A stretch of 24,000 bases of DNA from Planctomycetaceae bacterium (GTDB taxonomy: Bacteria; Planctomycetota; Phycisphaerae; UBA1845; UTPLA1), in NCBI GenBank assembly GCA_006969385.1, contig CP030884.1, positions 3,938,249 to 3,962,248 on the forward strand, written 5' to 3'. The notes under the pieces were generated by a model. It made no database searches. It was not told the DNA's origin and saw only the letters and a list, made by a program, of their open reading frames with translations. Position 1 is the first letter of the stretch; every line of letters begins with the position of its first letter. A program made the translations under genes and the position numbers. Shown here in pieces: positions 686-17,898 of this stretch.

Positions 686-3600
686 GTCGGCGAGCGCGAA
701 GATTGTCGGTACGGGACCGGAGGTGGTGTACAAAAATTGCTTGACGTTGCTGACGCCGTTGGGTGTTTCAACGGTGAAGTCGATGATGCCGTCGCCCGGT
801 GGCGAAATGAAGTCGATGCGGCTGGGCGTGATCGTGAGGTCGGCGCCGGTGATATCCTGCGCGCCCCAATGCACGACGACTTGATCGGCGGGGAAGAAGC
901 CGAGGCCTGTTAGCGTGATGAGATTGCCGCCGGCATCAATGCCTTCGTCGGGGGCCGTGTTGATGATCGGTCGCAGGCCGGTTTGATCGTGGCTCAGCGC
1001 GGCAATCGAAATATCGATGATGGCACCGCCGCCGAGTTGCCATGCGAGCGCCAACGGTGCATCGGCGATGTCGTTGACGGCAAAGCGCGCTTCGAGCGTG
1101 TGGGCGCCGGTCGTCAGGTTGATCGGACCGCTGACGAGATTGCCGTCCACCCACAGGCGCGATTCGGTACCGCCGCCGCTATAGAAGGTGTAGTTACCCG
1201 CCTGTGTAACGTTAACGGTGGTATTGATGCGGGCAAGCACGTTGCCGGTGTAAGGCGAGTTACCCAGCGTAGCGTTGTCATCGTTGATGTAAAGCGTGCT
1301 GACCACTTCGCCAAAGTTTGCGGTAGCGGGCGGATTGTCGATCAGCGTTTGCGGATTGCCGCTGTAATAGCGCACCAGCGCACCGGGCACGGCGTCGGGG
1401 CCAACGACGCGGAAGGTTTCTTCCAACGCGAGCTGTTCCGGTGGAATGTTGTCATCGTAGATGGTCAGCCGCACCGTGTGTTCGCCGACAGGGAAGGTGT
1501 GCGTCGTATCCATCGTGGTCGCGAATATCTGACCGTTCTGAGTCCACTCGAACGCTTCCAATTCATGACCGAGTTCGTGGGTATGCGAATCGCGACCCAG
1601 CAGCGTCACGGGTTCGCTACCGTTCTGGTCGTAGTCGACGGTGACCGGATCGACATCGATGACGACGTGCAGGAACGGATGGCCGGTTTCTTCACCGCCG
1701 ATTCCGCTGAGCGACACGTGTTGCGGCGGGAAGTTGCCTCGAAATTCGACGTCAACGTTGTTGGCGATGGGCGTATTCGGTGCGAACAGCAAGCTGCCTT
1801 GCAGGTTAGCGCCGGGAGCCAAGTCGATATCGACGGGATGAATGACATCGCCAGCCGCGCCGGTTAAATCGAGGCCGGGCAGGCTGAGCGTGAAATCTTC
1901 GCCGCCGCCGTCGTTCACTTGAAACGCAATCGACGAGATGTTGATCGGTTCGCTGCCGTCGTTGGTGAGCGTGAGCGTTTGAACGAAGCCGGCTTGCCCC
2001 AGCGGCACGTGGCCCCAGGATACAAACGTCGGATCGAGCGTTAGTTCGCCCGCGCTGAGTTGCACGACTTCGATCGCCGAAATTTTCGGGTTCTGCGCGA
2101 CCTTCGCCAGTGCGATGACGATATCGCCGTCGAGCACTTGCAAGTCATATGTTTGAACCGTCGCGGTGCGGAAGCCCGCGACGGCGGCGATATCAAAGTT
2201 ATCGAGTACGAGGTTTCCATTCACGAACACATCGAAGACGCGCACGCCGGGGTTTTGCGCGCCGGACCAAATCTCGGCGAAGTGCATCCGCACGCGATAC
2301 GTGCCCGGATCGACCGGAAGCGTGAACACGAGGTTTTGCGTACTGCTTTCGATGAAGCGCTCGGATTGATAGAGCGTGTCGTTTTCGGTATTAGCAATGG
2401 CGGCGGTGCTGGTGAACGATCCGCCGCTATTGTAGAAGCCGGCATCGGACGACCAAAAGTTGCCGTCGCCATCGGTGTAATCCGGGCCGCCGGCGTTTAG
2501 GCGATAAATGACGAATTCGTCGTTGCTGCCGGTGTCTTCGATCAACGTGACGGTGACGCTGTCGGTTGCTGCGGGGCCGGGAATCGGTTGATGGCTGGTA
2601 TCGGCAAAGAACACCGTCACGGTGTAAGTGCCGGGAGGCAGCGGGCCGAGCGTGGTCGAACCGTTGAGGTTCATGCTCATCGTGGGCGCTTCGTCGTCGA
2701 GTTGGATATGTACGTGATTGACGGTGCTTAAATCACCCGTCGATGCCCACGACACGTCGATCGTGTCGCCAACGATCGTGCTGTTGTTGGCGGGGGTGGT
2801 GATGGTGATCGTCGGCGGCGTGGTAACCACTTCTTCGGTTGTAAACGACACGCTGTCGGTTGCTTCGGGATTGGTAAGCTCGCCATCGCCGCTATCCACG
2901 AGCGTTACCGTAAGCGTGTGATTGCCGGGCGCGACGTTATTGAAGGTGAGCGAACCCGTTAGATTGAGGCTCATCTGCATCGGTTCGTCATCGAGCTGCA
3001 CGTGCACATGGTCGACGCTGCTGAGGTCGCCGCTGGTCTGCCATTGTGCGATAAAGCTGGTGCCCATCAGTGTTGCGCCGTTGTTCGGCGCGAGAATGTT
3101 AACCGTCGGTGGCAAGGGTGCGGCGTCGCCGAGGATTTCGATGCCGGAGACTTTGGGGTTTTCAAAGTTATGAATGAACTCAATGTTGAGCGTGCCGTCG
3201 GTGACCGTCGTTTCAAACTCGTGCACATCGGCCGTGAGCGGGCCGACTTCCGCGACGATGTCGTAATCAGTAAGCACGGTGGCACCTTCGATGGCCACAT
3301 TCATCACGCGCCGCGCGGGTTGCGTCCAATACGTTTCGGCAAAGTGCAAACGCACGGTATAGCTGCCTGCTGCGACCGGGAACTCGAACATCATCTCAGG
3401 AGCCGACGATGAATCCCAACGGCAGGAACGATACAAGGGGTCGTTGTCGGTGCCGGCGATCTCGGTGCCGCTATTAACGACTGAGCTATTGCCGATGTTG
3501 TAATAACCGGCGTCGGATTCCCAGGTATTGCCAAGGTTGTCGGTGTAGGTGGGGCCGCCAACGTTGATGCGATACAAGGCATCGTCACTGCCGGGCTGCG

Positions 3601-6067
3601 GCACGAGCGTGACCGTGACGACCTTCGTCGCTTCCGGGTTGAGCAGCGGGGCTTGGCCGACATCCACCAATGAAACGGTGATCGTGTAAGTGCCCGGCAA
3701 GAGGGGCAACGCGACCATGCCGTTGAGCGGCAGCAGCGTTTGTGGGTTTTCTTCGTCGAGTTGTACGTGTACGTGCGCTGCGTCGGTGAGGTCGCCCGAG
3801 CTGTTCCACGAGACCATGATTTCGTCGCCGGTGATGGTGGCACCGTTGAATGGCGAAGTAAGCGTGAGCGTCGGCGGTTCGATCGGATTGCCGGTCGACG
3901 TGAAGCCGACGCTGTCATATGCCTCAACATTGGGCAGATTTTGATGGTTGGCATCAACGATGTTGATCTCAAAGGTATGCGAGCCGGGGGCCACGCCGGT
4001 GAACGTAAAGCTGCCGGTCAGGTCGGGCCGCATGATGATGCCGCCGTTATCGAGCCGCAGGTGCACGTGGTTGGCGTCGGTCAGATCGCCCGTGGTTTGC
4101 CATTGCACGGTGATGGCGTTGCCGTTGATCGATTCGCCTTCAGTTGGTGAGGTGATGTTGATTGTGGGCGGATCGGGCGTGTTGTCGACGGTAATGAATC
4201 CAACGGTATCAAACGCTTCGGCGTTGGGCAGGTCTTGATGATTGGCATCGACGAGATTGACTTCAATCGTATGCGCACCGGCCGCAACACCGCTAAAAGT
4301 GTACGAACCGCTGAGTGTGGGTCGCATGATGATGCCGCCGTTGTCGAGGCGCAAGTGAACGTGATTGGCGTTTACCAAATTGCCGGATGATTGCCACTGC
4401 ACGGTGACTTCGTCGACGTCGATCGATGCGCCTTCAGTCGGCGCGAGGATCGTGACGGTCGCCGGAAGGGGCGGTGCAGCGTCGGTCGTGAAGGTGACGA
4501 CCGCAGACGCTTCGGGGTTGGGCAGGTTTTGATGAACCGCATCGACGAGGTTTACCTGCAATGTGTGTGCACCAGCAGCGAGATCGGTGAACGTATAGCT
4601 GCTGTCGAGATTCATCTGCATCACAACGGGCCGATCATCGAGTTGCAGATGCACGTGGTTGACCTGCGACAAGTCGCCGGTGGATACCCATTGAACGGTG
4701 ACGGCCGAATCGGAGATGACCTGACCTTCGGTCGGGCTGATCACGTCGATGGTCGGCGGCGTCGGTTGCACCGGGGTATCGCTCAGGATTTCGATGGCCG
4801 AAACCTTTGGGTTCTCGAAGTCGTGCAGAAACTCGACATTCAACACGCCGTCGGACACGGTTGTTTCAAACTCGCGAATATCCGCGGTGAATGCGCCGAC
4901 TTCCGCAACAAGGTCGAGGCCGCTGATGACATTGGTGCCTTCGATGGCGACGCCAAAAACGCGGCGATTCGGCTGCGTCCAGTAGATCTCGGCAAAGTGC
5001 AGGCGCACGGTGTACTCGCCGTTGGTGACCGGGAACGAATACACCATTTCGCTGCCGGACGCCGAATCCCACCGACCGGTCTGGTAAATCGTATCGATTT
5101 CGGTGTTGGCAATTTGCGTAGCCGCGTGAACCTGCTCTTTTTTGCCGGTGTTGTAGAAGCCCATGTCGGACATCCACAAGTGGCCGTTCTGATCGACATA
5201 GTTCGGGCCGCCGGCATTGACGCGATAGTAAGCGGTGACCGGCGCGTTGAGTGCGATCTGCGTGATGCAGGTTACGCTGCAACCGTTGTTGTCGGTGACG
5301 TCAACGCTATAGAAGCCGTCTTGATCGATCGTGACGCTGTTGTTGGTTTCACCGCTGTGCGGCCAGAAGTAAGACTCGTAACCGGGCGTGGCAGTCAGTA
5401 GCACATCGGTCTGCTGATAGGTGGGTGCGATCACAAGGGAGGGCGGCAGGGCCGAGTTGGTATCGATCGTGATTTGATCGGCACCTCCAAAACCATCGCT
5501 GACGGTCACGATGAATTGATCGACTGGCTCGTCGACGTCGGCGGCTTGATAACAAAGCGTGACTTGCCCGCCGACGCTTCCGTTTACGAAACTTGCCGTG
5601 CCGAATTCGGGTGGCGTGGCGATCGACCAAATCAGATTCTCGGTATCACCCAGATTCGGGTCGACGGCTTCGAGTTGAATCGCGTTGCGCGCGCTGGGGC
5701 ACGTATCGCAGAAAACATTGTTGAGTAGCGCAATATCGCCCGTCGTGATCTGCGGGGCGAAGTTACACGGGGTGCCCATGAGAATGCCGACGAAGCCGGG
5801 GATGTCGTCGACCGTGATGAGATCGTCGGCGGCGCACGGATCGCCGGGCGAACCGATATCGGCGGCGTCGAGTTCGTCCGCCGTCGGTGTTTGCGGATTC
5901 ACAATCAGCTCGATGAAGCTCGGGATATCCGCGCCGTTGGTTTCGCCGTCACCGTTGGTATCGCCCGGTTCGAATGCGCCACACGAGGCGGCGCACATCA
6001 GGACGAGCGCGCAGCACAAGCGCGCGGTGGTCGACCACGTATTGATTAAATGATCTCTAAGCGGCAT
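1..6067 (-). CDS. Giant secreted/lipoprotein-type multidomain glycan-binding protein, 5' end complete, 3' end beyond window (>=2022 aa)
   Basis: Absent from the ORF track because no stop lies in the window. Hand reverse-complement translation from ATG 6067..6065 gives 2022 sense codons plus 1 nt down to position 1. Frame is coordinates 1 mod 3; spot checks: Val973 = 3151..3149, Gln1336 = 2062..2060. N-terminus MPLRDHLINTWSTTARLCCALVLMCAASCGAFEPGDTNGDGETNGADIPSFIELIV. The last residues read are ...RNALSLVYTTNNRIYA. Coherent domain grammar throughout (see sub-features). Every other minus-strand ORF listed in this span is in a different frame. Confidence 0.85.
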   Translation of the reverse strand, partial: MPLRDHLINTWSTTARLCCALVLMCAASCGAFEPGDTNGDGETNGADIPSFIELIVNPQTPTADELDAADIGSPGDPCAADDLITVDDIPGFVGILMGTPCNFAPQITTGDIALLNNVFCDTCPSARNAIQLEAVDPNLGDTENLIWSIATPPEFGTASFVNGSVGGQVTLCYQAADVDEPVDQFIVTVSDGFGGADQITIDTNSALPPSLVIAPTYQQTDVLLTATPGYESYFWPHSGETNNSVTIDQDGFYSVDVTDNNGCSVTCITQIALNAPVTAYYRVNAGGPNYVDQNGHLWMSDMGFYNTGKKEQVHAATQIANTEIDTIYQTGRWDSASGSEMVYSFPVTNGEYTVRLHFAEIYWTQPNRRVFGVAIEGTNVISGLDLVAEVGAFTADIREFETTVSDGVLNVEFLHDFENPKVSAIEILSDTPVQPTPPTIDVISPTEGQVISDSAVTVQWVSTGDLSQVNHVHLQLDDRPVVMQMNLDSSYTFTDLAAGAHTLQVNLVDAVHQNLPNPEASAVVTFTTDAAPPLPATVTILAPTEGASIDVDEVTVQWQSSGNLVNANHVHLRLDNGGIIMRPTLSGSYTFSGVAAGAHTIEVNLVDANHQDLPNAEAFDTVGFITVDNTPDPPTINITSPTEGESINGNAITVQWQTTGDLTDANHVHLRLDNGGIIMRPDLTGSFTFTGVAPGSHTFEINIVDANHQNLPNVEAYDSVGFTSTGNPIEPPTLTLTSPFNGATITGDEIMVSWNSSGDLTDAAHVHVQLDEENPQTLLPLNGMVALPLLPGTYTITVSLVDVGQAPLLNPEATKVVTVTLVPQPGSDDALYRINVGGPTYTDNLGNTWESDAGYYNIGNSSVVNSGTEIAGTDNDPLYRSCRWDSSSAPEMMFEFPVAAGSYTVRLHFAETYWTQPARRVMNVAIEGATVLTDYDIVAEVGPLTADVHEFETTVTDGTLNIEFIHNFENPKVSGIEILGDAAPLPPTVNILAPNNGATLMGTSFIAQWQTSGDLSSVDHVHVQLDDEPMQMSLNLTGSLTFNNVAPGNHTLTVTLVDSGDGELTNPEATDSVSFTTEEVVTTPPTITITTPANNSTIVGDTIDVSWASTGDLSTVNHVHIQLDDEAPTMSMNLNGSTTLGPLPPGTYTVTVFFADTSHQPIPGPAATDSVTVTLIEDTGSNDEFVIYRLNAGGPDYTDGDGNFWSSDAGFYNSGGSFTSTAAIANTENDTLYQSERFIESSTQNLVFTLPVDPGTYRVRMHFAEIWSGAQNPGVRVFDVFVNGNLVLDNFDIAAVAGFRTATVQTYDLQVLDGDIVIALAKVAQNPKISAIEVVQLSAGELTLDPTFVSWGHVPLGQAGFVQTLTLTNDGSEPINISSIAFQVNDGGGEDFTLSLPGLDLTGAAGDVIHPVDIDLAPGANLQGSLLFAPNTPIANNVDVEFRGNFPPQHVSLSGIGGEETGHPFLHVVIDVDPVTVDYDQNGSEPVTLLGRDSHTHELGHELEAFEWTQNGQIFATTMDTTHTFPVGEHTVRLTIYDDNIPPEQLALEETFRVVGPDAVPGALVRYYSGNPQTLIDNPPATANFGEVVSTLYINDDNATLGNSPYTGNVLARINTTVNVTQAGNYTFYSGGGTESRLWVDGNLVSGPINLTTGAHTLEARFAVNDIADAPLALAWQLGGGAIIDISIAALSHDQTGLRPIINTAPDEGIDAGGNLITLTGLGFFPADQVVVHWGAQDITGADLTITPSRIDFISPPGDGIIDFTVETPNGVSNVKQFLYTTSGPVPTIFALADAAAIAKPTALTWGADGRLYVANINGKIEAYTFDDNYNVTNTQVINTLTTLSNKGILGITTSPFDAPGTVKLYVAHGELFANGGACFEGFSPYSGQVSVLTGPNFNVAEPLITGLPVSNHDHSVNGMTVDNFGNLLICSGGNTNAGVPNCNIGDVPESPLSAAILKAEVWRPDFDGAVTYIDPATGNLNMDQVFGNIVDQLGGRDVSVWAPGLRNALSLVYTTNNRIYA
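722..973 (-). other. IPT/TIG-like domain, aa 1699-1782
   Basis: PIINTAPDEGIDAGGNLITLTGLGFFPADQVVVHWGAQDI...RIDFISPPGDGIIDFTVETPNGVSN. Pattern P.I..[IV].P..G...GG..[IV]T[IL.]G.GF. Confidence 0.5.
1013..1387 (-). other. PA14-like carbohydrate-binding domain, aa 1561-1685
   Basis: GALVRYYSGNPQTL...ARINTTVNVTQAGNYTFYSGGGTESRLWVDGNLV...GAHTLEARF. Typical PA14 pattern: G[LW]...Y+ ... G.Y.F....DD...L.[IV]DG..V. Confidence 0.55.
1403..1666 (-). other. PKD-like domain, aa 1468-1555
   Basis: LEAFEWTQNGQIFATTMDTTHTFPVGEHTVRLTIYDDN resembles the PKD pattern W.......G....H.[FY]...G.Y.V.L.V.D. Confidence 0.4.
1697..2047 (-). other. Ig-like beta-sandwich (choice-of-anchor-D / ASH-like), aa 1341-1457
   Basis: LTLDPTFVSWGHVPLGQAGFVQTLTLTNDGSEPINISSIAF...DLAPGANLQGSLLFAP...VSLSGIG. 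Pattern L.P..[LV].[FW]G.V..G......L.L.N.G...L.I. Confidence 0.4.
2060..2518 (-). other. Malectin-like carbohydrate-binding domain 3 (aa 1184-1336), more diverged
   Basis: IYRLNAGGPDYTDGDGNFWSSDAGFYNSGG...LYQSERF...YRVRMHFAEIWSGAQNPGVRVFDVFVNGNLVLDNFDI...NPKISAIEVV. Confidence 0.7.
2543..3112 (-). repeat. Two further tandem 98-aa His-x-His repeats, R5-R6 (aa 986-1175)
   Basis: PPTVNILAPNNGATL...GDLSSVDHVHVQLDD and PPTITITTPANNSTI...GDLSTVNHVHIQLDD. HVH at aa 1020-1022 and 1118-1120, the same 98-aa register as R1-R4. Confidence 0.8.
3128..3583 (-). other. Malectin-like carbohydrate-binding domain 2 (aa 829-980)
   Basis: LYRINVGGPTYTDNLGNTWESDAGYYNIG...LYRSCRWDS...YTVRLHFAETYWTQPARRVMNVAIEG...DGTLNIEF...NPKVSGIEIL. 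Confidence 0.75.
3602..4759 (-). repeat. Four tandem 98-aa (294-nt) His-x-His Ig-like repeats, R1-R4 (aa 437-822), DUF4399-like
   Basis: Repeat starts PPT at aa 437 and 633 (R1, R3), PAT at 535 (R2), PPT at 731 (R4). Invariant HVH at aa 471-473, 569-571, 667-669 and 765-767. R2 and R3 share ANHVHLRLDNGGIIMRP. The identical 20-mer cgcatgatgatgccgccgtt occurs at 4029..4048 and 4323..4342, exactly 294 nt apart. Confidence 0.85.
4778..5236 (-). other. Malectin-like carbohydrate-binding domain 1 (aa 278-430)
   Basis: YYRVNAGGPNYVDQNGHLWMSDMGFYNTG...IYQTGRWDS...YTVRLHFAEIYWTQPNRRVFGVAIEG...DGVLNVEF...NPKVSAIEIL. This is the remembered malectin signature. Confidence 0.75.
5774..5965 (-). other. Dockerin-like / EF-hand calcium-loop pair (aa 35-98)
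   Basis: GDTNGDGETNGADIPSFIELIV matches the dockerin repeat pattern D.N.DG..N..D(I)..F. A second, degenerate copy is ADIGSPGDPCAADDLITVDDIPGFVGILMG. Confidence 0.5.
5981..6067 (-). other. Signal peptide with possible lipobox (AAS|C29) of the giant protein
   Basis: Basic n-region (R4, R16), hydrophobic LCCALVLMCAA, then S-C-G. Only a loose match to the L-[AS]-[GA]-C lipobox. Confidence 0.5.
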
Positions 6068-6228
6068 TCGTTCCCCGTCACGAAAAGGCCACAAGTCTGC
6101 GCGGATTGTCCCCCACAAACCGCACCGATTATACTCAGCCGAAATTGCGATTAGAAGCCTCATTATCGGTTGGGCGGGGTATTTCGTTGCTTATCGCCCG
6201 TTCGCCGAATCCGCCAGCGGGAGGTCTT

Positions 6229-8439
6229 ATGTTTCCGAATTCGAAGCCAAGCCGGTTGCCTTGTTTAATGCCGATCGGTCGCCGATTTATTGCGTTTTTT
6301 GCGGTCTTGGTGCCGATGGCCGTTTTCGGCTGTGGCGATGGCGCGTCCTCATTTCCGAATCTGATCGGGGACGTGGTGATTGAAGGCCGCGTCCGAGATA
6401 GCAGCGGCTTCGGGATTCCGGGCGTAATTGTGGCGGCCAGCGGCGTGCGCGAGGCCGGCGTGACGGACCCGGCGGGTCGTTATCAATTGGCGGTTCCGGG
6501 CGGTTGGTCGGGGACGATTCGGCCGCAAAAACAAGATTTTGTGTTTTCGCCAACGGAAAAACTGATGGATGCCGCAGGGCAAGATGGCGTCGATTTCGTA
6601 GCAACGATGCGCTCGACGCCCACGACATACAATGGCCATCAAGTCGATTTATGCGGCGACCCGAATTCGAGTGAAAGCGCCGCTACGTCTGAGTTGATTA
6701 TCGAAGCGCCGCCGGTCGTGCGTATTTCCAACGGTGGCTCGTCGGCGCAGGTGCGCTTGGATGGTTCGGGAAGCCGCTTGCCCGATGGCAGTCGCATCGA
6801 ATGGCGCAATGGCGGCGTGCCGATTGCGTTTGATTTGACGGCAACCGTCGATTTGCCAGTGGGCCGTCATGATGTGGAGTTGGTGTCGATTCAGCCGAAC
6901 GGCACGGAGCGCTCGCGGTCGGTAATTATCAACGTGATTACGGAAGGGCCGCAGACGATTTACGTCGATGCGGATCATCCGTCGGCAAACGATGGTAATA
7001 CGGGCACGGCCGACACACCGCTGGCCACGATACAAGCGGGCGTGGATAAGGCGCGAGCGGGTGATGTCGTCGTGGTGCGCTCGGGAACATATTACCGAAA
7101 TCATCCGTCGGTGAATCGACCGGTGGTGCTGATGGAGAATCGACACGGTACGGCGGAGCAGCCGATCACGATCACCGCCGATACGGGCGCGATGCCGCGC
7201 GTGACGGGCATGCGACCGGGGGCGGAACGCGGTAATACGGGCTGGCGCATCGTCGATTCGTCGTGGATTGTGATCAACGGTTTTCGGTTTGAGAACTTGA
7301 ACGGTGTCGGGTTGGATATCGAAGCGAGTTCACCGGGGGCGACGCATCATATCGACGTGTTGGAATGCAGTGCCGAGCGCTGCAGCCAAGGACCGAACAC
7401 ATTTGTCGGTGCGCTGCGCGCCGTGGGGCCGGTGCGGAACGTCTCGTTCAAGAACTGTATGATCTCCAATAGCAGTAGCGGCATCGTGTTGCGCGAAGCG
7501 CCGGTGCAAACGCGCGAAACGGCAGCCGTGCCGCCCAAGGCGGGCAACAACGCGCCGGGTGCGCCGGGCGGGCGGTACAGCAGCGACTTGGCCGAGTCGG
7601 CCTGGGCCGATTGGTGCGGGTGGGATCAGATCGCGCCGAAACATTGTGTTATCGAGAATTGTCTGAGCTTTAACAACCGCCAAGTGCCCGAACATAGCGA
7701 TGGCTTCGGCACGCGCTACGCGACGCACTGCATCATCAAAGACAACATCGCTTTCGGTAATGCCGACGACAACTTCGACCTGCTGGGCGGCACGCACTTA
7801 ACGGTGACAGGTAATATTGCGTTTAACGGCAATCCGGAAAACACGGAGGCGGGCGACGGCAATGGGATAAAGGTCGGTGTGCGCGGCGGCTTGGATTGTT
7901 TGGTCGCATTTAACATTTCGTTCGACAACCGCCGCATGGGGTTGGACATGGGCGATACCGAGCGCGGGCGCGTGTTTCATAACACGATCGTAAATAATGG
8001 TGCCGGCCATCCGAACGGATTCGGCATGTGGTTCGAGGGCGGGCGCTCAAGTGCGGGCCATCAGGTGATGTTTAACATCTTGCAGGGCAACGGGCTAAAC
8101 ACGTCGCGCGGTGATTACGGCGCGGCGCGGCACGTGAGCTTCGCGGCCAGCGATTACAACAGCATGAGCGATAGCCACAGCCATAACTTCGCCGGTCCGA
8201 GCGGTAGCCACGATCGCGTGGGGGACAATGTTGAATTTGTCGCCGGGGATGCCGCGGTAAGCCCCGTCTTTGTTGAGGGGATGTCGATTGCACAACGCAT
8301 CAATCTGGTGCGGCAGCAAGTGCGCAACAAATTTATGCTCGCGCCGGGCAGCCCCTTACGCGGATCGGCGACGGTGGTTGGTGGCGTGAATGACGGCGTG
8401 ACGAGGCCGGGGGGAAATTGGGGCGCGGTGCAGGAGTAA
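6229..8439 (+). CDS. Right-handed parallel beta-helix repeat lipoprotein (pectate-lyase fold) with N-terminal carboxypeptidase-regulatory-like and PKD/Ig-like domains
   Basis: The track gives a TTG start at 6106. I prefer ATG 6229, which is preceded by GGGAGG (6219..6224); ATG 6268 is an alternative. Signal plus lipobox: MFPNSKPSRLPCLMPIGRRFIAFFAVLVPMAVFG|C. CarboxypepD_reg-like: IEGRVRDSSGFGIPGVIVAASGVREAGVTDPAGRYQLAVPGG. Beta-helix cap: IYVDADHPSANDGNTGTADTPLATIQAGVDKARAGDVVVVRSGTYY. PbH1-type turns: NIAFGNADDNFDL, GNIAFNGNPEN, NISFDNRRMGLDM, HNTIVNNG. Confidence 0.85.
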   Translation: MFPNSKPSRLPCLMPIGRRFIAFFAVLVPMAVFGCGDGASSFPNLIGDVVIEGRVRDSSGFGIPGVIVAASGVREAGVTDPAGRYQLAVPGGWSGTIRPQKQDFVFSPTEKLMDAAGQDGVDFVATMRSTPTTYNGHQVDLCGDPNSSESAATSELIIEAPPVVRISNGGSSAQVRLDGSGSRLPDGSRIEWRNGGVPIAFDLTATVDLPVGRHDVELVSIQPNGTERSRSVIINVITEGPQTIYVDADHPSANDGNTGTADTPLATIQAGVDKARAGDVVVVRSGTYYRNHPSVNRPVVLMENRHGTAEQPITITADTGAMPRVTGMRPGAERGNTGWRIVDSSWIVINGFRFENLNGVGLDIEASSPGATHHIDVLECSAERCSQGPNTFVGALRAVGPVRNVSFKNCMISNSSSGIVLREAPVQTRETAAVPPKAGNNAPGAPGGRYSSDLAESAWADWCGWDQIAPKHCVIENCLSFNNRQVPEHSDGFGTRYATHCIIKDNIAFGNADDNFDLLGGTHLTVTGNIAFNGNPENTEAGDGNGIKVGVRGGLDCLVAFNISFDNRRMGLDMGDTERGRVFHNTIVNNGAGHPNGFGMWFEGGRSSAGHQVMFNILQGNGLNTSRGDYGAARHVSFAASDYNSMSDSHSHNFAGPSGSHDRVGDNVEFVAGDAAVSPVFVEGMSIAQRINLVRQQVRNKFMLAPGSPLRGSATVVGGVNDGVTRPGGNWGAVQE

Positions 8440-8643
8440 TACCGATTCCACTTTCATATTGCGCCGCATCGGAATGGGGCTCAAAGGAACGCCGTGAGTC
8501 ATTTGCGTCTCAGCGGAATGCAGTCTTCCCTGCCTAAAGCGCGGTTTGAAACTGGAATCCGTATAATCTACATTTTTTGGGGTGCGCTCGAATCTCATTC
8601 CCTTCGTCCCGCTGGGACGCGATAACTTCAATTGTCATGAACA

Positions 8644-8663
8644 CCCAGCAGTGAACTGCTGGG
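8644..8663. other. Perfect 8-bp stem / 4-nt loop hairpin (cccagcag-tgaa-ctgctggg) in the convergent spacer; function unknown
   Basis: Read directly: 8644..8651 pairs with 8656..8663. No adjacent U/T tract on either strand, so it is not a canonical intrinsic terminator. Confidence 0.4.
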
Positions 8664-8982
8664 CTATTGTCGATGCTTCCCTACCGGGATGCGAAGATTT
8701 TTCTTTCGGTACGCCGCGATCATTCTTTCGTTCACGTCAATCCAATGCTTAAAGCAATGGGTGGGGAGCGATGATGGACGCCGGCTGGGGGGACGGCGCG
8801 GACGCCCATGCATCGCATCCCCATCATTAAAAAGGAGAAGCGTTGCGGCGCCACCCGCGCAACGATCATCGAATTGCTAGCCGACAGTTGCCTGGGTACA
8901 TATCCGCCGTCTGTTTCGGAGCGCGTTGGAGGCGCACGCGCCGAACACTTGCCGCCTTGGGCCGCGGCACGACGGACCGACG

Positions 8983-9615
8983 TCAATCCGCAAAGGCATG
9001 GGCAGATTCGTTGCCCTGCAGATCCGCCCATTGCACTGCGATGAGGATGACCGAGAAGGCCAACACCCCCGCAGGTAGGGCGAAGTCGTAACTCGTGGTG
9101 AGCGAACTGATAGCTGCACCGACGCCGTTGGTCGGGTGGGCCGCAAGAATCGCTAAGGCAGCCGTAATGAGACAGCCGCCGTGAAGGCCGGTGACGAGCA
9201 CCGTCGTCTGACGGTACATCGTGAGGCCGAGTGCCATGCATAGGCCGGCACCGCAAATCGCGCTACCGATGCGTATCTCGAGCACCGGCGTGAGATCGAC
9301 CACCACGATCAACGTCGCGAGAAAGCCGATGACGCCGAAAAAGCCGAGCGCTGCGCGTTTCTCGAAGAGCCACGCACAAATCGGTAGCACCAATAACACG
9401 GAAATGCTTAAGACGATCGGTGGAATGGGTAAGGCATCGCGAAAGGCGCTGTCATGCGACGCGAACGCCAAAAGGCCCGCCAGTACGATCGTGTCGAGCA
9501 AGATCAGCAAGCGCACGATGCGCCAGCCGAAGAAGCCATACACGCAACCGGCCAGCGCGAGTAAAACCGCAAACCCGGTACCCAGATGGGCAAAATATTG
9601 AGTGATGTATTGCAC
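8983..9615 (-). CDS. Uncharacterised polytopic inner-membrane protein (about 6-7 TM), last gene of the dcw-strand run
   Basis: 210-aa ORF with a GTG start at 9615..9613, preceded by GAGAGGAAG. Hydrophobic segments: GTGFAVLLALAGCVYGFFGW, LLILLDTIVLAGLLAFA, IVLSISVLLVLPICAWLF, LGFFGVIGFLATLIVVV, GSAICGAGLCMALGLTMY, VLVTGLHGGCLITAALAILAA, LPAGVLAFSVILIAVQW. No family identified with confidence; the topology loosely recalls DUF4203/TMEM198-like proteins. Confidence 0.7.
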   Translation of the reverse strand: MQYITQYFAHLGTGFAVLLALAGCVYGFFGWRIVRLLILLDTIVLAGLLAFASHDSAFRDALPIPPIVLSISVLLVLPICAWLFEKRAALGFFGVIGFLATLIVVVDLTPVLEIRIGSAICGAGLCMALGLTMYRQTTVLVTGLHGGCLITAALAILAAHPTNGVGAAISSLTTSYDFALPAGVLAFSVILIAVQWADLQGNESAHAFAD

Positions 9616-9691
9616 GGGTCTTCCTCTCGTTGCGCCGCCAGATGCAAGCGAGGTTCACCATGCCTCCTAATCCTTACACGTTGAATAAAAC

Positions 9692-10552
9692 TTACGATCC
9701 AGAATCGTCGCCGTCCGAGGAAGGCAGGATTTTTTTCGGGAAACGCGCTTCCTTGGCCTGCCATATCAGACCCACGATCCAAAGCCCGAGAACAACGTAA
9801 GCGGGGACGTGCGGTTGGGCGAAGATCGCATCGCGCATATCGGGCCATTTGCAGCAAATCAGGGTGCAGCCCGCCAGCACGGATAGGTTGGCCCCGAGAA
9901 AGCCGAGCCAAAGGATGGCAAACGTTTGCAGCGCCCAATAGGCAAGCGCCGCGCCGAGGACAGCGGCGGAGATGGGCAGTATCCACGCGAAGAAATCGAA
10001 ATCGCGCACCGTCGCGGCGATGTTCTCACCGATACGCGACAGTTGCGTGCGCCAATCGGGGTTCTGATTGTTTTGCTGTTGTTCCGGCGTGGGCAATTGA
10101 ATGCGTGCCTTCTCAACGTCGACGGGCCCGTTCATTTGCTCGGGCTGCGGCAGGTACGAGCTGAGATCGCCGCGACCGAGCTGCAGCGTTAGACCGATTG
10201 CAAATAGTACGACGACCGAGCCGGTGGCGAGCCAGAGTTTGTATGTTTTGTAAGCCAGTGCCGTAGAGGCGATGGACGTTATGGCAATCGTGATTGGGCC
10301 GGGCAGGCCGAACGCGTTAGACAGGTAATACCCGACGTAGCCGCCGAACAGCAGCGCGAAGGCCATTACGATTTGGCGCTCGAACTTACCACCGCGAAAG
10401 ACGAGACCGATTCCGAGACCGACCGCGAAGAGGGCACCGACGATCACTTCAGGCGTGGCCGCGATGGGCGGCACGCAGTGCTCCATCAGTTGGCGGAACG
10501 CCTCGATCCAACGTTCGCTTGCGTTTTCGGTGGTCGTTTGTGCGAGCAACAT
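9692..10552 (-). CDS. Uncharacterised polytopic inner-membrane protein (about 7 TM) with a central Gln/Asn/Pro-rich loop; sits immediately after ftsQ-like
   Basis: 286-aa ORF, ATG at 10552, weak RBS. TM candidates: VIVGALFAVGLGIGLVF, IVMAFALLFGGYVGYYL, ITIAITSIASTALAY, LWLATGSVVVLFAIGLTL, FFAWILPISAAVLGAALAYWAL, FAILWLGFLGANLSVLAGCTLICC, AYVVLGLWIVGLIWQA. Soluble loop at aa 126-186 (9995..10177): ...LPQPEQMNGPVDVEKARIQLPTPEQQQNNQNPDW... Confidence 0.7.
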   Translation of the reverse strand: MLLAQTTTENASERWIEAFRQLMEHCVPPIAATPEVIVGALFAVGLGIGLVFRGGKFERQIVMAFALLFGGYVGYYLSNAFGLPGPITIAITSIASTALAYKTYKLWLATGSVVVLFAIGLTLQLGRGDLSSYLPQPEQMNGPVDVEKARIQLPTPEQQQNNQNPDWRTQLSRIGENIAATVRDFDFFAWILPISAAVLGAALAYWALQTFAILWLGFLGANLSVLAGCTLICCKWPDMRDAIFAQPHVPAYVVLGLWIVGLIWQAKEARFPKKILPSSDGDDSGS

Positions 10553-10685
10553 TCCATTGATCCAATCGTGGGGCCGACGCCGGCCCCGCGTGGGAGATTA
10601 TATGGTAAACGCAGGAGATGGCTGCGGCTCTCGCCGTGGATATTGCCTTGACGACCGAATGTCGGCGGCGACGCAGTTACCCGGA

Positions 10686-11660
10686 TTAGTGCGTGCCCGC
10701 CGCATAATTGGGGCCGGCCGTCTGGATCGAATCGCTGAACGAGCGGATATCGACGAACGGGCGATTGATGTCGATGCGACCGTAATGGTCGTAAAGCCGC
10801 CGCAAGAGGGCGAGTTTTTGCCCGGCCGAGTTCTCGACCCCCATCTCTTCATGCGGCGCACGGCCCCACCAAATGCGCGAACCGGGGCGGTCCGTTGCGA
10901 TGACCAGATGCGGCTGTGTCTGCGTGATGCGACCCTGATAATTCTCCACGTTGATGCTGGCGACCTGATCGCGATAAGGCTGGCGCAGCAACATGCGGGT
11001 GAGTTCGAGCCCGGTTTGCAAATCTTCGCCGGGCCAGTAATGGCCCACGACGGGCTCGGGGGCCTCAACGCCGCGAATGAGAATGCCCACGGGCGGCGAC
11101 CATTGACTGACGCGATATTGCCCCGGCAGACGGATGCCTTCGTCATCGACGCGATAGAAGTACTCGCCCCAACTCACGAATGCGCGCGGATAGCGGAACG
11201 TGCAGTTGACGCTGATGCGGCCGTTGGGGCGCACGATGACGCGATTGACCTTCTTGATCCAAGCGATCTCATCGACCGAGCGCGGACCGGTTTGGCTGAG
11301 CGTGCTCGCGATGCGCTGGGCCAGCGAATCGTCTAGCACGCGGTCGTTGGCCGTAAGCGCGATAGCACTTTCGAGGCCGCGAAAGACCGAGTCGTAGGAA
11401 TCGGCCTGCAAAAAGGGCGGCACGTCCTCCCAATCAATCCAGAGTTCCACCCGCTCGAAATGCGTTAGACGATGAACGTGGCTGCGCAGACTGTAAAGCC
11501 CCCATATGCAACCGGCACCGACGGCGCTGACGAGCAACGCCACCAGCGCCGCCCGCCGAACGGGGCGATAGTCTTCCGATGCCAGTCGCGCGACAATCTC
11601 AAACGCGGCGGGCGGGTCGGACGCCTTCTTCTTGTTTCGTTTCTTTTTAGCCGCCGGCAA
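10686..11660 (-). CDS. ftsQ: FtsQ-like bitopic cell-division protein (polybasic N-terminus, one TM, POTRA-like plus FtsQ-type periplasmic domain)
   Basis: 324 aa, TTG start at 11660 preceded by GGGAGGAAG 8 nt upstream. MPAAKKKRNKKK, then TM AALVALLVSAVGAGCIWGLY. The segment IAWIKKVNRVIVRPNGRISVNCTFRYPRAFVSWGEYFYRVDDEGIRL fits the POTRA/FtsQ pattern (PW[IV]..a.V.R..P..l.[IV]...R.P.A.......vD..G). Lies directly after ddl, as in dcw clusters. Sequence is divergent, hence moderate confidence. Confidence 0.6.
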   Translation of the reverse strand: MPAAKKKRNKKKASDPPAAFEIVARLASEDYRPVRRAALVALLVSAVGAGCIWGLYSLRSHVHRLTHFERVELWIDWEDVPPFLQADSYDSVFRGLESAIALTANDRVLDDSLAQRIASTLSQTGPRSVDEIAWIKKVNRVIVRPNGRISVNCTFRYPRAFVSWGEYFYRVDDEGIRLPGQYRVSQWSPPVGILIRGVEAPEPVVGHYWPGEDLQTGLELTRMLLRQPYRDQVASINVENYQGRITQTQPHLVIATDRPGSRIWWGRAPHEEMGVENSAGQKLALLRRLYDHYGRIDINRPFVDIRSFSDSIQTAGPNYAAGTH

Positions 11661-11706
11661 CGGTCGGACTTCCTCCCAGGCGATTGGCTGTTATTGCTGC
11701 GCGACG

Positions 11707-12693
11707 TTACTGGCCTTTGAGCGCGGCAAAGCGCCGGTCGATGGCCATGTTGACGATGCGCAGGCATAAATCCGCCATCTCGATGCCGGCATGGGCTGCG
11801 GCCTTGGGAAGCAGCGAATGGGACGTCAGGCCGGGAATCACGTTGATTTCCAGCAGGCGTGCATCGCCGATTTGATCGTCCACACGCCAATCGACGCGGG
11901 AAAAATCGCGACAGCCGAGCAATTTGTGCGCCGCCAAGCTCCAATCGACGATGCGGCGCTGCAGGTCATCGGGCAGATCGATGTCGAATCCGTACTCTGT
12001 ATCTTCATCGACATATTTGGCCTCATAATCGTAGAAGTCCCGCTTGGTGCGGATTTCGATCATGGGAAGCGCCGTTTCGCCGAGGATGGAGACCGTGATT
12101 TCCTTGCCGGGCACGAACTGCTCGATCAGGCATTGGTCGTATTTTTCGAGTGTGAGTTCGAGAGCGGGCCGCAACTGAGTGACGTCGCGGACAATGTGAC
12201 AATAGAGGCTGCTGCCCTCAGCAACGGGTTTGACGACGACGGGCAGATTCCAGGCAGCCATCGCTTCGCGGATGTTGCCTTTGGTGACGACGGCGTAGCG
12301 GGCCGTGGGGATGCCGGCCTCCAGGAATTTGGCTTTGGCGGCGGCTTTGTTCATGGCGAGTGCGCAACAGTCAGGCCCCGAGCCAGTGTAGGCGAGACCG
12401 CGCTGGTGGAGAATGCGCTGAACCTGCCCGTCTTCGCCGAACGTACCGTGCAAAGCGATGAAGACGCAGTCGACATCGCGGGCAAGGGCACCGAGATCGT
12501 CCGGCGCGATGTCATCGACGGCGACGTCATGGCCGCGACTGAGCAGGGCGTCAGCGACGGCACGGCCGCTATTCAGGCTGACGTCGCGTTCGCCACCGGG
12601 CCCGCCGGCAAGAACGGTGATCGTGAGTTTGTCGGTAGCGCGCCGCGACCGAATCGAGGGTTGGGCGGCGTTGGTATTGGTGTGGGCGTCCAT
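11707..12693 (-). CDS. ddl: D-alanine--D-alanine ligase
   Basis: 328 aa. ITVLAGGPGGERDVSLNSG; FIALHGTFGEDGQVQRILHQRGLAYTGSG; PVVVKPVAEGSSL; LLEINVIPGLTSHSLLPKAAAHAGI. ATG 12693 with GAGGAAG 9 nt upstream. Confidence 0.9.
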   Translation of the reverse strand: MDAHTNTNAAQPSIRSRRATDKLTITVLAGGPGGERDVSLNSGRAVADALLSRGHDVAVDDIAPDDLGALARDVDCVFIALHGTFGEDGQVQRILHQRGLAYTGSGPDCCALAMNKAAAKAKFLEAGIPTARYAVVTKGNIREAMAAWNLPVVVKPVAEGSSLYCHIVRDVTQLRPALELTLEKYDQCLIEQFVPGKEITVSILGETALPMIEIRTKRDFYDYEAKYVDEDTEYGFDIDLPDDLQRRIVDWSLAAHKLLGCRDFSRVDWRVDDQIGDARLLEINVIPGLTSHSLLPKAAAHAGIEMADLCLRIVNMAIDRRFAALKGQ

Positions 12694-12738: not shown

Positions 12739-13638
12739 TTACCAAATCTTGACTTCGGGCTCGAGTTCGACACCAGAGCTTTCAAATACGCGCGTGCGAA
12801 TCGTTTGGATCAATTCGCGCACGTCGCGCGCCGATCCACCACGATCGGCCATGGCGAAGTTGGCGTGTTGCTCGCTGACGAAAGCACTACCGATGCGAAA
12901 ACCCTTGAGGCCCGCGCGGTCGATGATGCGCCCGGCCGAGTCACCTTCGGGATTGCGAAAGATGCAACCGGCACTGTGGCCCGACATGGCGGGTTGGGTT
13001 TGCTGTTTGTAATCCCAAATCTCGCGGTAGCGTTGCTTGAGCGCGTCGGAGTCGGTCGGCGCAAGCTCGAATCGAACGCCGACAACAAACCGTTCGCCGA
13101 TGTCGCTTTGGCGATAGGCAAACCCCATGCGGTCGTGTTCGATCGTTTCGATGTCGCCGTTACTGTTCATCAGTTCGACGCTGCGCACGGCCATGGCGAT
13201 GTCGCCATACTTTCCGCCGCAGTTCATCGCGATGCCGCCGCCGACGGTGCCGGGGATGCCGGCGAGTTGTTCGAGACCGGCCATGCCGGCGCGCACGGCG
13301 GCGCGGGTGAGTTCGGTCATATCGACGCCGCCACCGGCATATCCGGCGTCGATGTCGAAAGAAGCAAAGTCCCCTTGGTCGAGGCGCAACACGACACCGC
13401 GCACACCTTCGTCGGGTACGAGCAGATTGGCACCGAGGCCGAAGATGCGCAGTGGCATGTCGGCGGCGCGGGCCGCGCGAATGACGGCCCGGAGTTCGTC
13501 GACGTTGCGGGGACGAATGAGATACTCCGCCGGGCCGCCGAGGCGAAACCACGTGAGCGGCGCCAGCGGCACATCGCGCGCGACGATCTCAGGCGGCAAG
13601 TCGGTGAAGCAGGTCATCGGTAACTTTCCACACATCAC
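12739..13638 (-). CDS. murB: UDP-N-acetylenolpyruvoylglucosamine reductase
   Basis: 299 aa. FRLGGPAEYLIRP; LRIFGLGANLLVPDEGVRGVVLRL; GIPGTVGGGIAMNCGGKYG; GCIFRNPEGDSAGRIIDRAGLKGFRIGSAFVSEQHANF. The start is either ATG 13638 or ATG 13617 (MTCFTDLPP...). Both overlap the murC 3' end. Confidence 0.9.
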   Translation of the reverse strand: MMCGKLPMTCFTDLPPEIVARDVPLAPLTWFRLGGPAEYLIRPRNVDELRAVIRAARAADMPLRIFGLGANLLVPDEGVRGVVLRLDQGDFASFDIDAGYAGGGVDMTELTRAAVRAGMAGLEQLAGIPGTVGGGIAMNCGGKYGDIAMAVRSVELMNSNGDIETIEHDRMGFAYRQSDIGERFVVGVRFELAPTDSDALKQRYREIWDYKQQTQPAMSGHSAGCIFRNPEGDSAGRIIDRAGLKGFRIGSAFVSEQHANFAMADRGGSARDVRELIQTIRTRVFESSGVELEPEVKIW

Positions 13639-15070
13639 CAGCCCCCATGGTAAGGATCACATCCTCGGGTTGGGCGTGCGTTTTCAGATAAGCGGCGATT
13701 TCGGGCAACGTCGGAATGTAATCGGCGTTGCCGCCGTGGGCATGGACGCGGTCGACCAAGTCCTGAGCGCAGACGGCGTCGCGCATGGTTTCGGAATCGC
13801 GCACGAAGTAAATCTCGGGGATCAGCAAGCGATCGGCGAGGCCGAAGCTCTTGGCGAAGTCATTCAACAGAAAACGCGTGCGCGAATGCTGGTGCGGTTG
13901 AAACACCACCCACAGGCGCCGACCGACGTAGCGTTCTTTGACGGCTTTGAGCGTGGCTTGAATTTCGGTGGGGTGATGACCGTAGTCATCGAGCAGCGTG
14001 ATGCCGCGCACTTCGCCGACGTGCGTCATGCGACGCTTGGCACCTTCAAACGTGTTGAGAGCGGCGGCGATCTGCTGCGTTTCGACGCCGGCGCGGTGTG
14101 CCAGGGCCGTTGCCACCAACGCGTTGGCGGCTTGATGGCGACCGATTAAGCCGCCGAGTTGGGCGCGGAACAAATGCTCCCCATTGAAGATCACATCGAA
14201 TTCGTAGTTGCCATTCTTATGGATCGGGTCGGCGGCTTGCCAGATAACGCCTTTACCGAAACCGAACGTTTGCACTTTGCAGCGCACCTCCGAAATGACT
14301 TCGGCAACGTGGCGGTCTTCACCGTTGGCGATCAGCAGGCCGTCTTCGGGAACGAGCGAAGCGAAACCGCGAAAGGCTTCGATGATGCCGTTGATGCTGT
14401 CGAAGCAGTCGAGATGGTCTTCTTCGATATTGAGAATCGCCGCGTGCTTGGGCGAGAGATTCAAGAAGGAATGATCGAACTCGCAAGCTTCGACGACCAT
14501 GTCGGGGCCGTTACCCACGCCCGAGCCGCCGCCTAGCTGCGGCACGTGCGCGCCGACCACGAACGTTGGATCGTGACCGGCCTGGCGCAGGATGTATGAA
14601 AGTAGTGCGGTCGTGGTGCTCTTACCGTGCGTGCCCGCTATGGCATACGACGTGCGGTAGCGCATCACCTGGCCGAGCATTTGCGAATACTTGATGCAGG
14701 GGATGGTGCGGCGGCGCGCTTCAACGAGTTCGGGGTTCTCAGGTTTGATCGCGGCCGAGTACACCACGAGGTCGCAATCGGAAGCGATGTTCATCGGTGC
14801 TTGGCCGATGCGAACCGTCGCGCCCATTTCTTCGAGCGGGGTTTGACCGTTGAACTCGCGCAGGTCGGAACCGCTGACGATCGCACCGCTGCGAATCAAT
14901 ACGCCGCCGAGACTGGACATGCCGCAGCCGCCGATGCCGATGAGGTGGATGCGTTTGGCAGCGAAGGGGCTGGACCAATGTTCCTGATGGCGACGACCGT
15001 TTTGCCGGGCGAATAGCTTGGAGATGCCATTGGATTTTTGTTGGGAATCGCTCGGAATGGATGTCGACAT
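13589..15070 (-). CDS. murC: UDP-N-acetylmuramate--L-alanine ligase
   Basis: 493 aa. IHLIGIGGCGMSSLGGVL; IAGTHGKSTTTALLSYIL; EACEFDHSFL; LDDYGHHPTEI. ATG 15070 preceded by GGAGG 10 nt upstream. About 20 aa longer at the N-terminus than I recall for E. coli MurC. Confidence 0.92.
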   Translation of the reverse strand: MSTSIPSDSQQKSNGISKLFARQNGRRHQEHWSSPFAAKRIHLIGIGGCGMSSLGGVLIRSGAIVSGSDLREFNGQTPLEEMGATVRIGQAPMNIASDCDLVVYSAAIKPENPELVEARRRTIPCIKYSQMLGQVMRYRTSYAIAGTHGKSTTTALLSYILRQAGHDPTFVVGAHVPQLGGGSGVGNGPDMVVEACEFDHSFLNLSPKHAAILNIEEDHLDCFDSINGIIEAFRGFASLVPEDGLLIANGEDRHVAEVISEVRCKVQTFGFGKGVIWQAADPIHKNGNYEFDVIFNGEHLFRAQLGGLIGRHQAANALVATALAHRAGVETQQIAAALNTFEGAKRRMTHVGEVRGITLLDDYGHHPTEIQATLKAVKERYVGRRLWVVFQPHQHSRTRFLLNDFAKSFGLADRLLIPEIYFVRDSETMRDAVCAQDLVDRVHAHGGNADYIPTLPEIAAYLKTHAQPEDVILTMGAGDVWKVTDDLLHRLAA

Positions 15071-15337: not shown

Positions 15338-16477
15338 TTAGTCGAGTTCGTCATCATCCTCGCCATCGGCCATGGCGATCAGGCGCGTGGCGATGAGGTG
15401 GGCGGCGTCGTGGCGACCGGCGGCGCCGGCAATGTCGGCCATGCGTTCGCGGCGATGTTCGGAAGTGATCAGGCTTTCCAATTCGCGTTGCAGTTTCTTG
15501 GCGTTCTTGCGCGCGTCGTTTACGTCTTCGACAACGATCGCCCCATTTTGCTCGCTCAGGATGCGGGCGTTATCGAATTGATGCTTGGCGCGGTCGTGCG
15601 GATACGGCATCAGGATCGATGCACGACCGACGGCAGTGATTTCGGCGAGTGTTGAGGCACCGGCGCGCGAAATGATGATGTCGGCCGCGCCGATGCATTG
15701 GGCCATCTTTTCGGTGAAGGCGAGCACTTTGGCGTCGACGCGCTCCTCGGCGTAACGCTTCTTGCAAACTTCCAAATCGTTATCGCCGGTCAGATGCAAC
15801 AACTGCCAGCCGCGCTGGCTGCGCCAGAACTCGCACAACTCCAAGACTGCCATGTTGATAGACCACGCACCTTGCGAGGCGCCGGTGACCAGCACGGTTT
15901 TCTTACGCGGGTCGAGCCCCATGGCGCGCACGGCCTTAGCGCGGTCGATGTTGGCGAACTCGGGACGTACGGGGCAACCGGTGCAACTGATTTTGCGCGA
16001 GCGACCGATTAGATCGATCGTGTCATACCATTGCACGAAGATGCGATCGACTTTGGGTGCGAGGTATTGATTGGCGCGGCCCGGCGTGGCGTCGGGGTTA
16101 AAGAGCGCTGTGGGAATTTTCAAATCGCTACCGGCAACGATGGCCGGGCCCGCGGCGTAGCCACCGAGGCCGAGGATCATGGCGGGCGGTCGATTTTTAA
16201 ATGACGCTTTGGCTTTGGCGATGCTTTTGCGCCAAGCGGCGAAAAAGCCGATGGCTTTGAGCGGGTTGGTGCTGAACGGTTTGACGTCTTGTTCGACGAG
16301 CGAATAACCGCGCGGCTCGGTGAGGCGTTTGTCGATGGGGCGCGGCGTGCCGTAAACGAAGATTTCGAACTCGGGGCGTTTGCGCAACAATTCGTCGGCG
16401 ACGACCAGGCCGGGATAGAGATGACCTCCGGTACCGCCGCCGGCAAGGACGAACAATGGACGTTCAGAATCGCTCAC
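15338..16477 (-). CDS. murG: Undecaprenyldiphospho-muramoylpentapeptide beta-N-acetylglucosaminyltransferase
   Basis: 379 aa, GTG start at 16477..16475 with GGAGGAG upstream. FVLAGGGTGGHLYPGLVVADEL; LGLGGYAAGPAIVAG; VLVTGASQGAWSIN; IISRAGASTLAEITAVGRASILMPYP...HQFDNA. Confidence 0.92.
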   Translation of the reverse strand: MSDSERPLFVLAGGGTGGHLYPGLVVADELLRKRPEFEIFVYGTPRPIDKRLTEPRGYSLVEQDVKPFSTNPLKAIGFFAAWRKSIAKAKASFKNRPPAMILGLGGYAAGPAIVAGSDLKIPTALFNPDATPGRANQYLAPKVDRIFVQWYDTIDLIGRSRKISCTGCPVRPEFANIDRAKAVRAMGLDPRKKTVLVTGASQGAWSINMAVLELCEFWRSQRGWQLLHLTGDNDLEVCKKRYAEERVDAKVLAFTEKMAQCIGAADIIISRAGASTLAEITAVGRASILMPYPHDRAKHQFDNARILSEQNGAIVVEDVNDARKNAKKLQRELESLITSEHRRERMADIAGAAGRHDAAHLIATRLIAMADGEDDDELD

Positions 16478-17845: not shown

Positions 17846-17898
17846 ACGAGTCCCCTATGTGCAAATCTTGCTGCTACTTTGGATATCGGCGGCACGGC

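Follow-up and report, generated by a model that had tools for sequence, protein, structure and literature searches.

Canonical division and cell wall (dcw) gene clusters end with ftsQ-ftsA-ftsZ. In a 24,000-nt stretch of contig CP030884.1 (assembly GCA_006969385.1) from a Planctomycetaceae bacterium of the class Phycisphaerae, hereafter the window, in whose positions all coordinates are given, the corresponding terminal site, directly past ddl and ftsQ, is occupied by two co-directional genes for membrane proteins of another kind, here called A and B. These genes and their upstream neighbour are:

10686-11660, minus strand: FtsQ-like gene, 324 amino acids (aa), recognised by its position after ddl and its bitopic architecture
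9692-10552, minus strand: gene A, 286 aa, ATG start, supported by its open reading frame (ORF), homologues, AlphaFold2 (AF2) model, ratio of nonsynonymous to synonymous substitutions (dN/dS) and synteny
8983-9615, minus strand: gene B, 210 aa, GTG start, supported by its ORF, homologues, AF2 model, paralogy to A and dN/dS

FtsA is a cytoplasmic, actin-fold peripheral membrane ATPase and FtsZ a cytoplasmic tubulin-like GTPase, whereas A and B are integral inner-membrane proteins with seven transmembrane (TM) helices, without a soluble domain and without the FtsZ signature. Our analysis makes it very probable that they are paralogous genes of the PF13886 superfamily that are syntenic with the FtsQ-like gene. 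On the basis of gene order and architecture we propose, tentatively and at somewhat less than even chance, that they act as accessory membrane factors of the envelope or division machinery, and not as a substitute for FtsZ.

The first-pass annotation of this stretch had described the ftsA-ftsZ slot as taken by two membrane-protein genes, and the gene map and the tiling of the window agree with that description. A regular-expression search for the FtsZ tubulin signature GGGTG[ST]G gave no match in any of the six frames of the window, and no actin-fold (SHS2/FtsA) ORF follows the ftsQ position there, both as first reported. There is no space for ftsA, because the sequence beyond the FtsQ-like gene is filled by A, B, a 543-nt gap, a beta-helix gene and a giant malectin protein. 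The accompanying statement that Planctomycetota lack ftsZ is likewise found in the literature: ftsZ and ftsB are absent in all planctomycetes, and ftsA in most of them, including Phycisphaerae (PMC12673574, PMC12283558). The way in which planctomycetes accomplish division in the absence of FtsZ is recognised as an open problem (PMC5147048, PMC12673574). The Phycisphaerae are an informative case, since they retain binary fission and have kept nearly all peptidoglycan and divisome genes.

Small divisome accessories encoded within or adjacent to dcw clusters offer another comparison. FtsL and FtsB, the partners of FtsQ, and YlmG/YGGT, encoded downstream of ftsZ in Gram-positive bacteria and cyanobacteria, are like A and B in being non-enzymatic membrane proteins whose link to division was first suggested by a conserved position beside ftsQ or ftsZ. 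They differ in build, FtsL and FtsB being bitopic coiled-coil proteins and YlmG having two to four TM helices, and no sequence relationship of any of them to A or B was detected with Pfam and NCBIfam. The family PF13886 (TM7S3/TM198-like, formerly DUF4203) comprises eukaryotic TMEM198 and TM7SF3 together with many uncharacterised bacterial proteins, and shares with A and B a design of about seven TM helices in roughly 200 residues. A departs from this design in having a 33-aa N-terminal helix and, between TM4 and TM5, a conserved insertion that forms a loop of 60 aa. A tandem pair with linkage to ddl and an FtsQ-like gene was not found described for PF13886 in the literature searched; searches for DUF4203 and PF13886 found no mention of the family, and no description was found of the genes that follow ftsQ in Phycisphaerae. 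The conserved terminal module FtsQ-like-A-B of the dcw cluster appears to have been undescribed until now.

Family assignment and paralogy of A and B

A and B are real, functional genes under purifying selection. In comparison with an orthologous locus that encodes A and B proteins with 93-94% identity to those of the window, A has a dN/dS of 0.026 and B one of 0.10, and many positions are invariant in both family alignments. A has 43 full-length homologues at 39-94% identity, every named one of which is labelled Phycisphaerae or Phycisphaerales. An exhaustive profile search extended the A family to 175 cluster representatives at E<=1e-3, matching end to end and nearly all 265-295 aa long, and 138 of these representatives make up the broad A-family alignment. 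For B, 14 homologues were found by single-sequence search and 35 by profile.

Neither window protein matched a Pfam family at E<=1 or had an NCBIfam match, and the connection to PF13886, which has a Pfam gathering score of 29.2 bits, emerged from their relatives. Sub-threshold matches to this family occurred in 18 of the 138 A-family members (best E 1.3e-4), compared with five for the next commonest family. In two A-family members whose alignments were examined, the N-terminal half corresponded to model positions 5-97 and the C-terminal half to positions 102-199, in collinear order. Four of seven B-position proteins from remote loci also matched PF13886, L039_B with 32.6 bits, above the gathering score, and L033_B with 25.1 bits, near it. 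The hidden Markov model (HMM) of the window-B family finds exactly these two proteins (27 and 23 bits), which the A-family HMM scores at 47.6 and 36.9 bits, respectively. Judged from these profile and transitive matches, A and B belong to the PF13886 superfamily as divergent members. The DUF4203/TMEM198-like relationship raised in the first-pass annotation is upheld at the superfamily level, although not as a direct match of the window proteins. By the same comparisons the pair forms a divergent branch within an already described domain of unknown function.

It had also been suggested that A and B look related to one another. Direct comparison gave no support to this suggestion, as BLASTP of A against B found no similarity (E 4.5) and hhalign of the close A and B families found none either (probability 1.7%), and the relationship became visible with broadened profiles. 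The B family aligned with the 138-member A family at 87.9% probability (E 3.2e-6) over 183 columns, pairing B 17-208 with A 40-279; this alignment is full-length and collinear, with the loop of A as an insertion relative to B. A joint B-like profile gave 98.5% (E 3.8e-15) and 92.2% (E 5.7e-7) against the A families; the alignment with the higher probability matches exactly the segments that had been paired between the two proteins at first reading, and in it, too, the loop of A is an insertion. Because the signal appeared solely with broadened profiles, reversed and block-shuffled controls were run. For the B family against the broad A family, reversed profiles gave E 0.1-0.15 and the best of ten block shuffles gave E 1e-3, and the reversed joint B-like profile reached 3.7%.

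The A-family HMM scored the B-position proteins of remote loci at 19-48 bits. Its match to the window B clade was weak (<=8 bits), yet collinear and better than the controls, which scored -5 to -25 bits, and by these scores the window B clade is a fast-diverged branch. The broadened-profile matches, together with controls that failed to reproduce them, indicate that A and B are ancient tandem paralogues, now distant from one another after an old duplication.

Linkage to the distal dcw cluster

The genome collection, scanned from the A side, yielded 30 loci, all of them in planctomycete metagenome-assembled genomes except for one 3.6-kb contig, and 26 had enough upstream sequence to be informative. 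In 18 of these 26, ddl and the FtsQ-like gene lie upstream of A, two of the 18 having a 2.5-2.8 kb insertion, and B follows A in 18 of the 30. An independent metagenome retrieval from the FtsQ-like side gave 25 loci, of which 21 were informative, and A lies downstream of the FtsQ-like gene in 16 of them. The layout is also identical on a 5.94-Mb contig of a close relative (JGI 3300001596, JGI12316J15310_10000008). In this lineage, A is the usual distal dcw gene right after the FtsQ-like gene, and B is usually next.

The same order extends to remote loci, for which the identities of Ddl and MurC served as a gauge of divergence. Identity to A is about 20% in its remote relatives, and remote Ddl proteins are 47-57% identical to those of the close group, compared with 59-68% within it. 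Six sampled remote loci (L031, L033, L034, L036, L037 and L067) have an FtsQ-like gene followed by an A-like gene, and a B-like gene follows the A-like gene in five of the six, missing in L036. L031 reads mraY-ftsW-murG-murC-murB-ddl-FtsQ-like-A-like-B-like, and the FtsQ-like gene is followed by both an A-like and a B-like gene in L033, L034, L037 and L067. Together, the counts from the A side, the counts from the FtsQ-like side and the remote loci point to a linkage that is strong, ancient and bidirectional, but not obligatory. Conservation of the association with dcw genes in relatives, which the first-pass annotation had put forward as a check, was found across deep divergence, though not in every locus.

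Insertions of 2.5-2.8 kb separate the FtsQ-like gene from A in L007 (2400-5200), L043 (6940-9740) and L029 (7560-9860). They carry small opposite-strand ORFs, L007 and L043 share one insert, and the order of the FtsQ-like gene and A is kept. In remote lineages the next gene is of the AP_endonuc_2 type (xylose-isomerase-like TIM barrel) and is absent from the lineage of the window; it follows the A-like/B-like pair in L031 (9654-10445), L033 (7786-8580) and L034 (6389-7186), and stands directly after A in L036 (1313-1714). The single contig of the A-side scan from outside the planctomycete genomes, L010 (NZ_BTVP01000082.1, 3.6 kb), was binned as 'Parvibaculum sp.', an alphaproteobacterium, and carries an A homologue. 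Its neighbouring ABC-2-type permease shows two differences in the first 70 residues relative to planctomycete locus L011, and the contig is probably mis-binned rather than a true occurrence outside Planctomycetota.

The FtsQ-like gene itself starts 46 nt downstream of ddl, a position after ddl that is kept in 18 genome loci and at least 21 metagenome loci. Its product has a Lys-rich N-terminal tail, one TM helix (about residues 36-58) and, on the far side of the membrane, a domain of some 260 aa. The window protein had no Pfam match and its family had no PDB sequence match. FtsQ_DivIB_C was weakly matched by two of 17 family members (E 0.016) and POTRA_1 by one remote member (E 0.21), and the FtsQ-like proteins of remote loci match the window FtsQ-like family at E 1e-48 to 1e-66. 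Both the architecture and the position are those expected of FtsQ, and we describe the product of 10686-11660 as a divergent FtsQ-like protein with faint support from sequence. Since FtsB is reported to be lost in all planctomycetes (PMC12673574), this protein would be left without its canonical partner.

Several points count against reading A and B as factors of the division machinery. Gene order is the sole link of the pair to division. The order of dcw genes is unusually inert, so that a gene landing at the end of the cluster could be retained passively. Eight of the 26 informative A-side loci have no dcw linkage, A having unrelated neighbours that include ABC transporters and DNA polymerase III alpha-like genes, among others, and in five of the 21 informative metagenome loci the genes downstream of the FtsQ-like gene are unrelated. 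In at least eight loci in which the sequence past A extends for at least 3.8 kb, no B follows, and the remote relatives in L035 and L065 are not near dcw genes. The identity of the neighbour as FtsQ is the faintly supported one given above, and neither window protein matches PF13886 directly, both staying below the gathering score. In P. limnophila, the dcw genes are non-essential (PMC10632474). No A/B-type pair flanks ddl in this species, the only planctomycete with essentiality data; the ddl neighbours Plim_0008 and Plim_0007 are a sigma factor and a ferredoxin (TraDIS supplement).

The unlinked loci, the unrelated contexts of L035 and L065 and the dispensability of B in many lineages would all be consistent with passive hitchhiking, as would the lack of a known bacterial function for PF13886, of which no mention was found in the literature searched. 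According to this explanation, A and B are housekeeping membrane proteins of unrelated function, derived from a tandem-duplicated PF13886-type gene that landed after ftsQ when ftsA-ftsZ was lost, and general inertia of dcw gene order has kept them in place. We consider it rather unlikely. The FtsQ-like gene and A stay adjacent even where identity has fallen to about 20% for A and 47-57% for Ddl, a range of divergence over which the remaining neighbourhood varies, including the gene that follows B. The order has been kept despite the insertions in L007/L043 and L029. Selection on A, at the dN/dS given above, is also very strong. If the pair were nevertheless a passive passenger, the result would document the remodelling of the dcw cluster after the loss of ftsA-ftsZ.

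Membrane architecture and conserved residues

Hydropathy and AF2 models both give about seven TM helices in A and in B, close to the earlier estimates of about seven and six to seven. The A model, built from the family alignment (pLDDT 76.7, pTM 0.62), consists of an N-terminal helix (residues 2-26), four TM helices (34-127), a loop (128-186) that forms its low-confidence region, and three further TM helices (187-269). The B model (pLDDT 64.6) has seven helices and no long loop. To assign topology, Lys and Arg were counted against Asp and Glu in each loop across each family, following the positive-inside rule. A net positive charge is found in the loops TM1-2, TM3-4 and TM5-6, and the remaining loops are neutral or acidic, a pattern common to both families. 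This alternation of charge predicts a shared topology for A and B, with the N-terminus outside and the C-terminus inside. The 60-aa loop and N-terminal helix of A would then be periplasmic, and its basic tail cytoplasmic.

The loop of A was recorded from the outset at 9995-10177, and it corresponds on the minus strand to residues 126-186, about 60 aa between TM4 and TM5. It contains the conserved residues G126, D129, L130, L134, P135, L153 and Q159, with the consensus QLGRGDLxRYLP ... LPSxExQ. The possibility that this Gln/Asn/Pro-rich segment is a mere low-complexity linker was rejected because it holds invariant positions. The juxtamembrane tail after TM7 (9731-9760, minus strand; residues 265-274, QAKEARFPKK) is nearly invariant, with Q265, A266, E268, A269, R270 and P272 invariant or near-invariant and QAKEARxPKK as the family motif, and the C-tail is strongly basic, with a net charge of +3.2 across the family. 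B is marked by an invariant GWRIxR turn after TM1, by TGxHGG in TM6 and by a C-terminal ILIAVQWAD. The motif strings quoted in the first-pass annotation are all present in the translations of A and B. Of its features, the conserved loop, the N-terminal helix and the invariant basic tail of A would be the likeliest to carry specificity.

Neither A nor B contains a soluble domain or a nucleotide-binding or polymerising domain, and their cytoplasmic loops measure 7-9 residues, plus a tail of about 20 residues. Across the broad family, conservation within the membrane helices is limited to the glycines G47, G54, G70, G74, G200 and G220, a pattern that points to tightly packed helices and not to catalysis or ion coupling. 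Together, these features argue against an FtsZ- or FtsA-like role and weakly for transport. A direct replacement of FtsA and FtsZ, in which the pair itself organises or constricts the division site, has in its favour the place of the pair in the cluster and the report that the lineage lacks FtsZ and FtsA (PMC12673574), and nothing else. With the short cytoplasmic loops and tail, the missing nucleotide-binding or polymerising domain, the absence of B in many relatives and the resemblance of the family to a eukaryotic and bacterial 7-TM domain without a cytoskeletal role, we regard such a replacement as highly improbable.

A transporter or channel serving peptidoglycan synthesis, for example in the recycling of the lipid carrier or the flipping of precursors, would be consistent with two polytopic proteins with glycine-rich helices that are encoded in a cluster of peptidoglycan-precursor genes. 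The close B clade has the invariant polar TM residues D41 (TM2) and T142 and H145 (TM6, TGxHGG), along with Q195-D198 at the end of TM7 (ILIAVQWAD), and the eukaryotic TM7SF3 has been implicated in H+/organic-cation antiport (PMC9413594). However, within the membrane the broad family conserves glycines alone and neither charged nor polar residues, and the polar residues of the B clade (D41, T142, H145 and Q195-D198) are lost in remote B-like proteins. The 7-TM single-domain design, judged from its layout, also appears to lack the inverted repeats of which carriers are typically built. Clear homology to a transporter family, which the first-pass annotation had named as evidence contrary to its proposal, was found in none of Pfam, NCBIfam, PDB sequence and Foldseek searches.

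Searches for enzyme, transporter or cytoskeletal homology of A and B were negative throughout Pfam, NCBIfam, PDB profiles and Foldseek-PDB. PDB sequence-profile searches with the A and B families gave no match, Foldseek-PDB searches with the two models gave best E-values of 2.2 and 1.3 with TM-scores <=0.3, and the MFS/ThrE matches among the 138 A relatives were sporadic, single and sub-threshold. A transport function seems unlikely on this evidence. The polar residues of the B clade could form a clade-specific functional site.

Possible role in envelope synthesis and division

As accessory membrane factors, A and B would form a lineage-specific, non-enzymatic scaffold or adaptor of the peptidoglycan-synthesis/division machinery, with the bitopic FtsQ-like protein and FtsW-FtsI as its neighbours in the inner membrane. 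On the outer face, contacts may be made by the conserved periplasmic loop and N-terminal helix of A, and on the cytoplasmic face by its invariant basic QAKEARxPKK tail. A scaffold of this type could contribute to the assembly or regulation of FtsQ, FtsW and FtsI in a lineage reported to be without FtsZ, FtsA and FtsB.

A bolder form of this proposal, which we hold to be improbable, is that the FtsQ-like protein, A and B constitute a lineage-specific divisome subcomplex of the inner membrane, replacing FtsB and FtsA, both lost, in their membrane-organising or activating roles. The subcomplex would recruit or license FtsW-FtsI for septal peptidoglycan synthesis and, if this were true, would be a core part of FtsZ-independent binary fission in Phycisphaerae. 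The pair beside the FtsQ-like gene provides concrete, short and testable division candidates to be considered with FtsQ, FtsW and FtsI, and offers a first clue from genomic context to the function of the bacterial TM7S3/TM198-like (DUF4203) branch.

Upstream cluster and flanking sequence

According to the ORF map, the minus strand forms one unbroken co-directional run from ftsI down to B, and the same upstream order of dcw genes is seen in related loci. Pfam confirmed ftsI, ftsW, murG, murB and ddl, and the other genes of the cluster were assigned from ORF size and homology to related loci. Besides the three genes given at the beginning, the window contains:

22221-23978, minus strand: ftsI, Pfam Transpeptidase and PBP_dimer
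20499-22031, minus strand: murE, by ORF size and homology
19100-20497, minus strand: murF, by ORF size and homology
17899-19035, minus strand: mraY, by ORF size and homology
16625-17845, minus strand: ftsW, by Pfam
15338-16477, minus strand: murG, by Pfam
13589-15070, minus strand: murC, by ORF size and homology
12739-13638, minus strand: murB, by Pfam
11707-12693, minus strand: ddl, by Pfam
6106-8439, plus strand: convergent gene for a 777-aa right-handed beta-helix protein, Pfam Beta_helix and CarboxypepD_reg, closing the strand run
1-6190, minus strand: giant open frame for a malectin/Big_7/PA14 protein, which with the other genes listed tiles the window fully

The gene murD is not present between mraY and ftsW (17845-17899 of the window, a gap of 53 nt) and must be encoded elsewhere. 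The adjacency of mraY and ftsW without murD is kept in L003, L004, L006, L024, L027, L031 and L068.

Rfam and tRNA scans of the whole window were empty, and a promoter and terminator scan of 8300-11800 gave nothing above shuffled expectation. The convergent intergenic region between B and the beta-helix gene (8440-8982, 543 nt) had no Rfam match, no tRNA and no terminator-like site above chance. Its counterpart in L068 is about 940 nt long, and a 146-aa gene without a Pfam match is called there. The beta-helix gene lies outside the A/B module and recurs as a neighbour in loci L001 and L068.

The giant frame encodes more than 2060 aa and continues past the left end of the window. It contains three malectin, five Big_7 Ig, one malectin-like and one PA14 domain, with a dockerin/EF-hand-like DxNGDG motif close to the N-terminus, and its very large product probably binds carbohydrates, either in secreted form or at the cell surface. 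In L068 the orthologue spans no fewer than 2507 aa.

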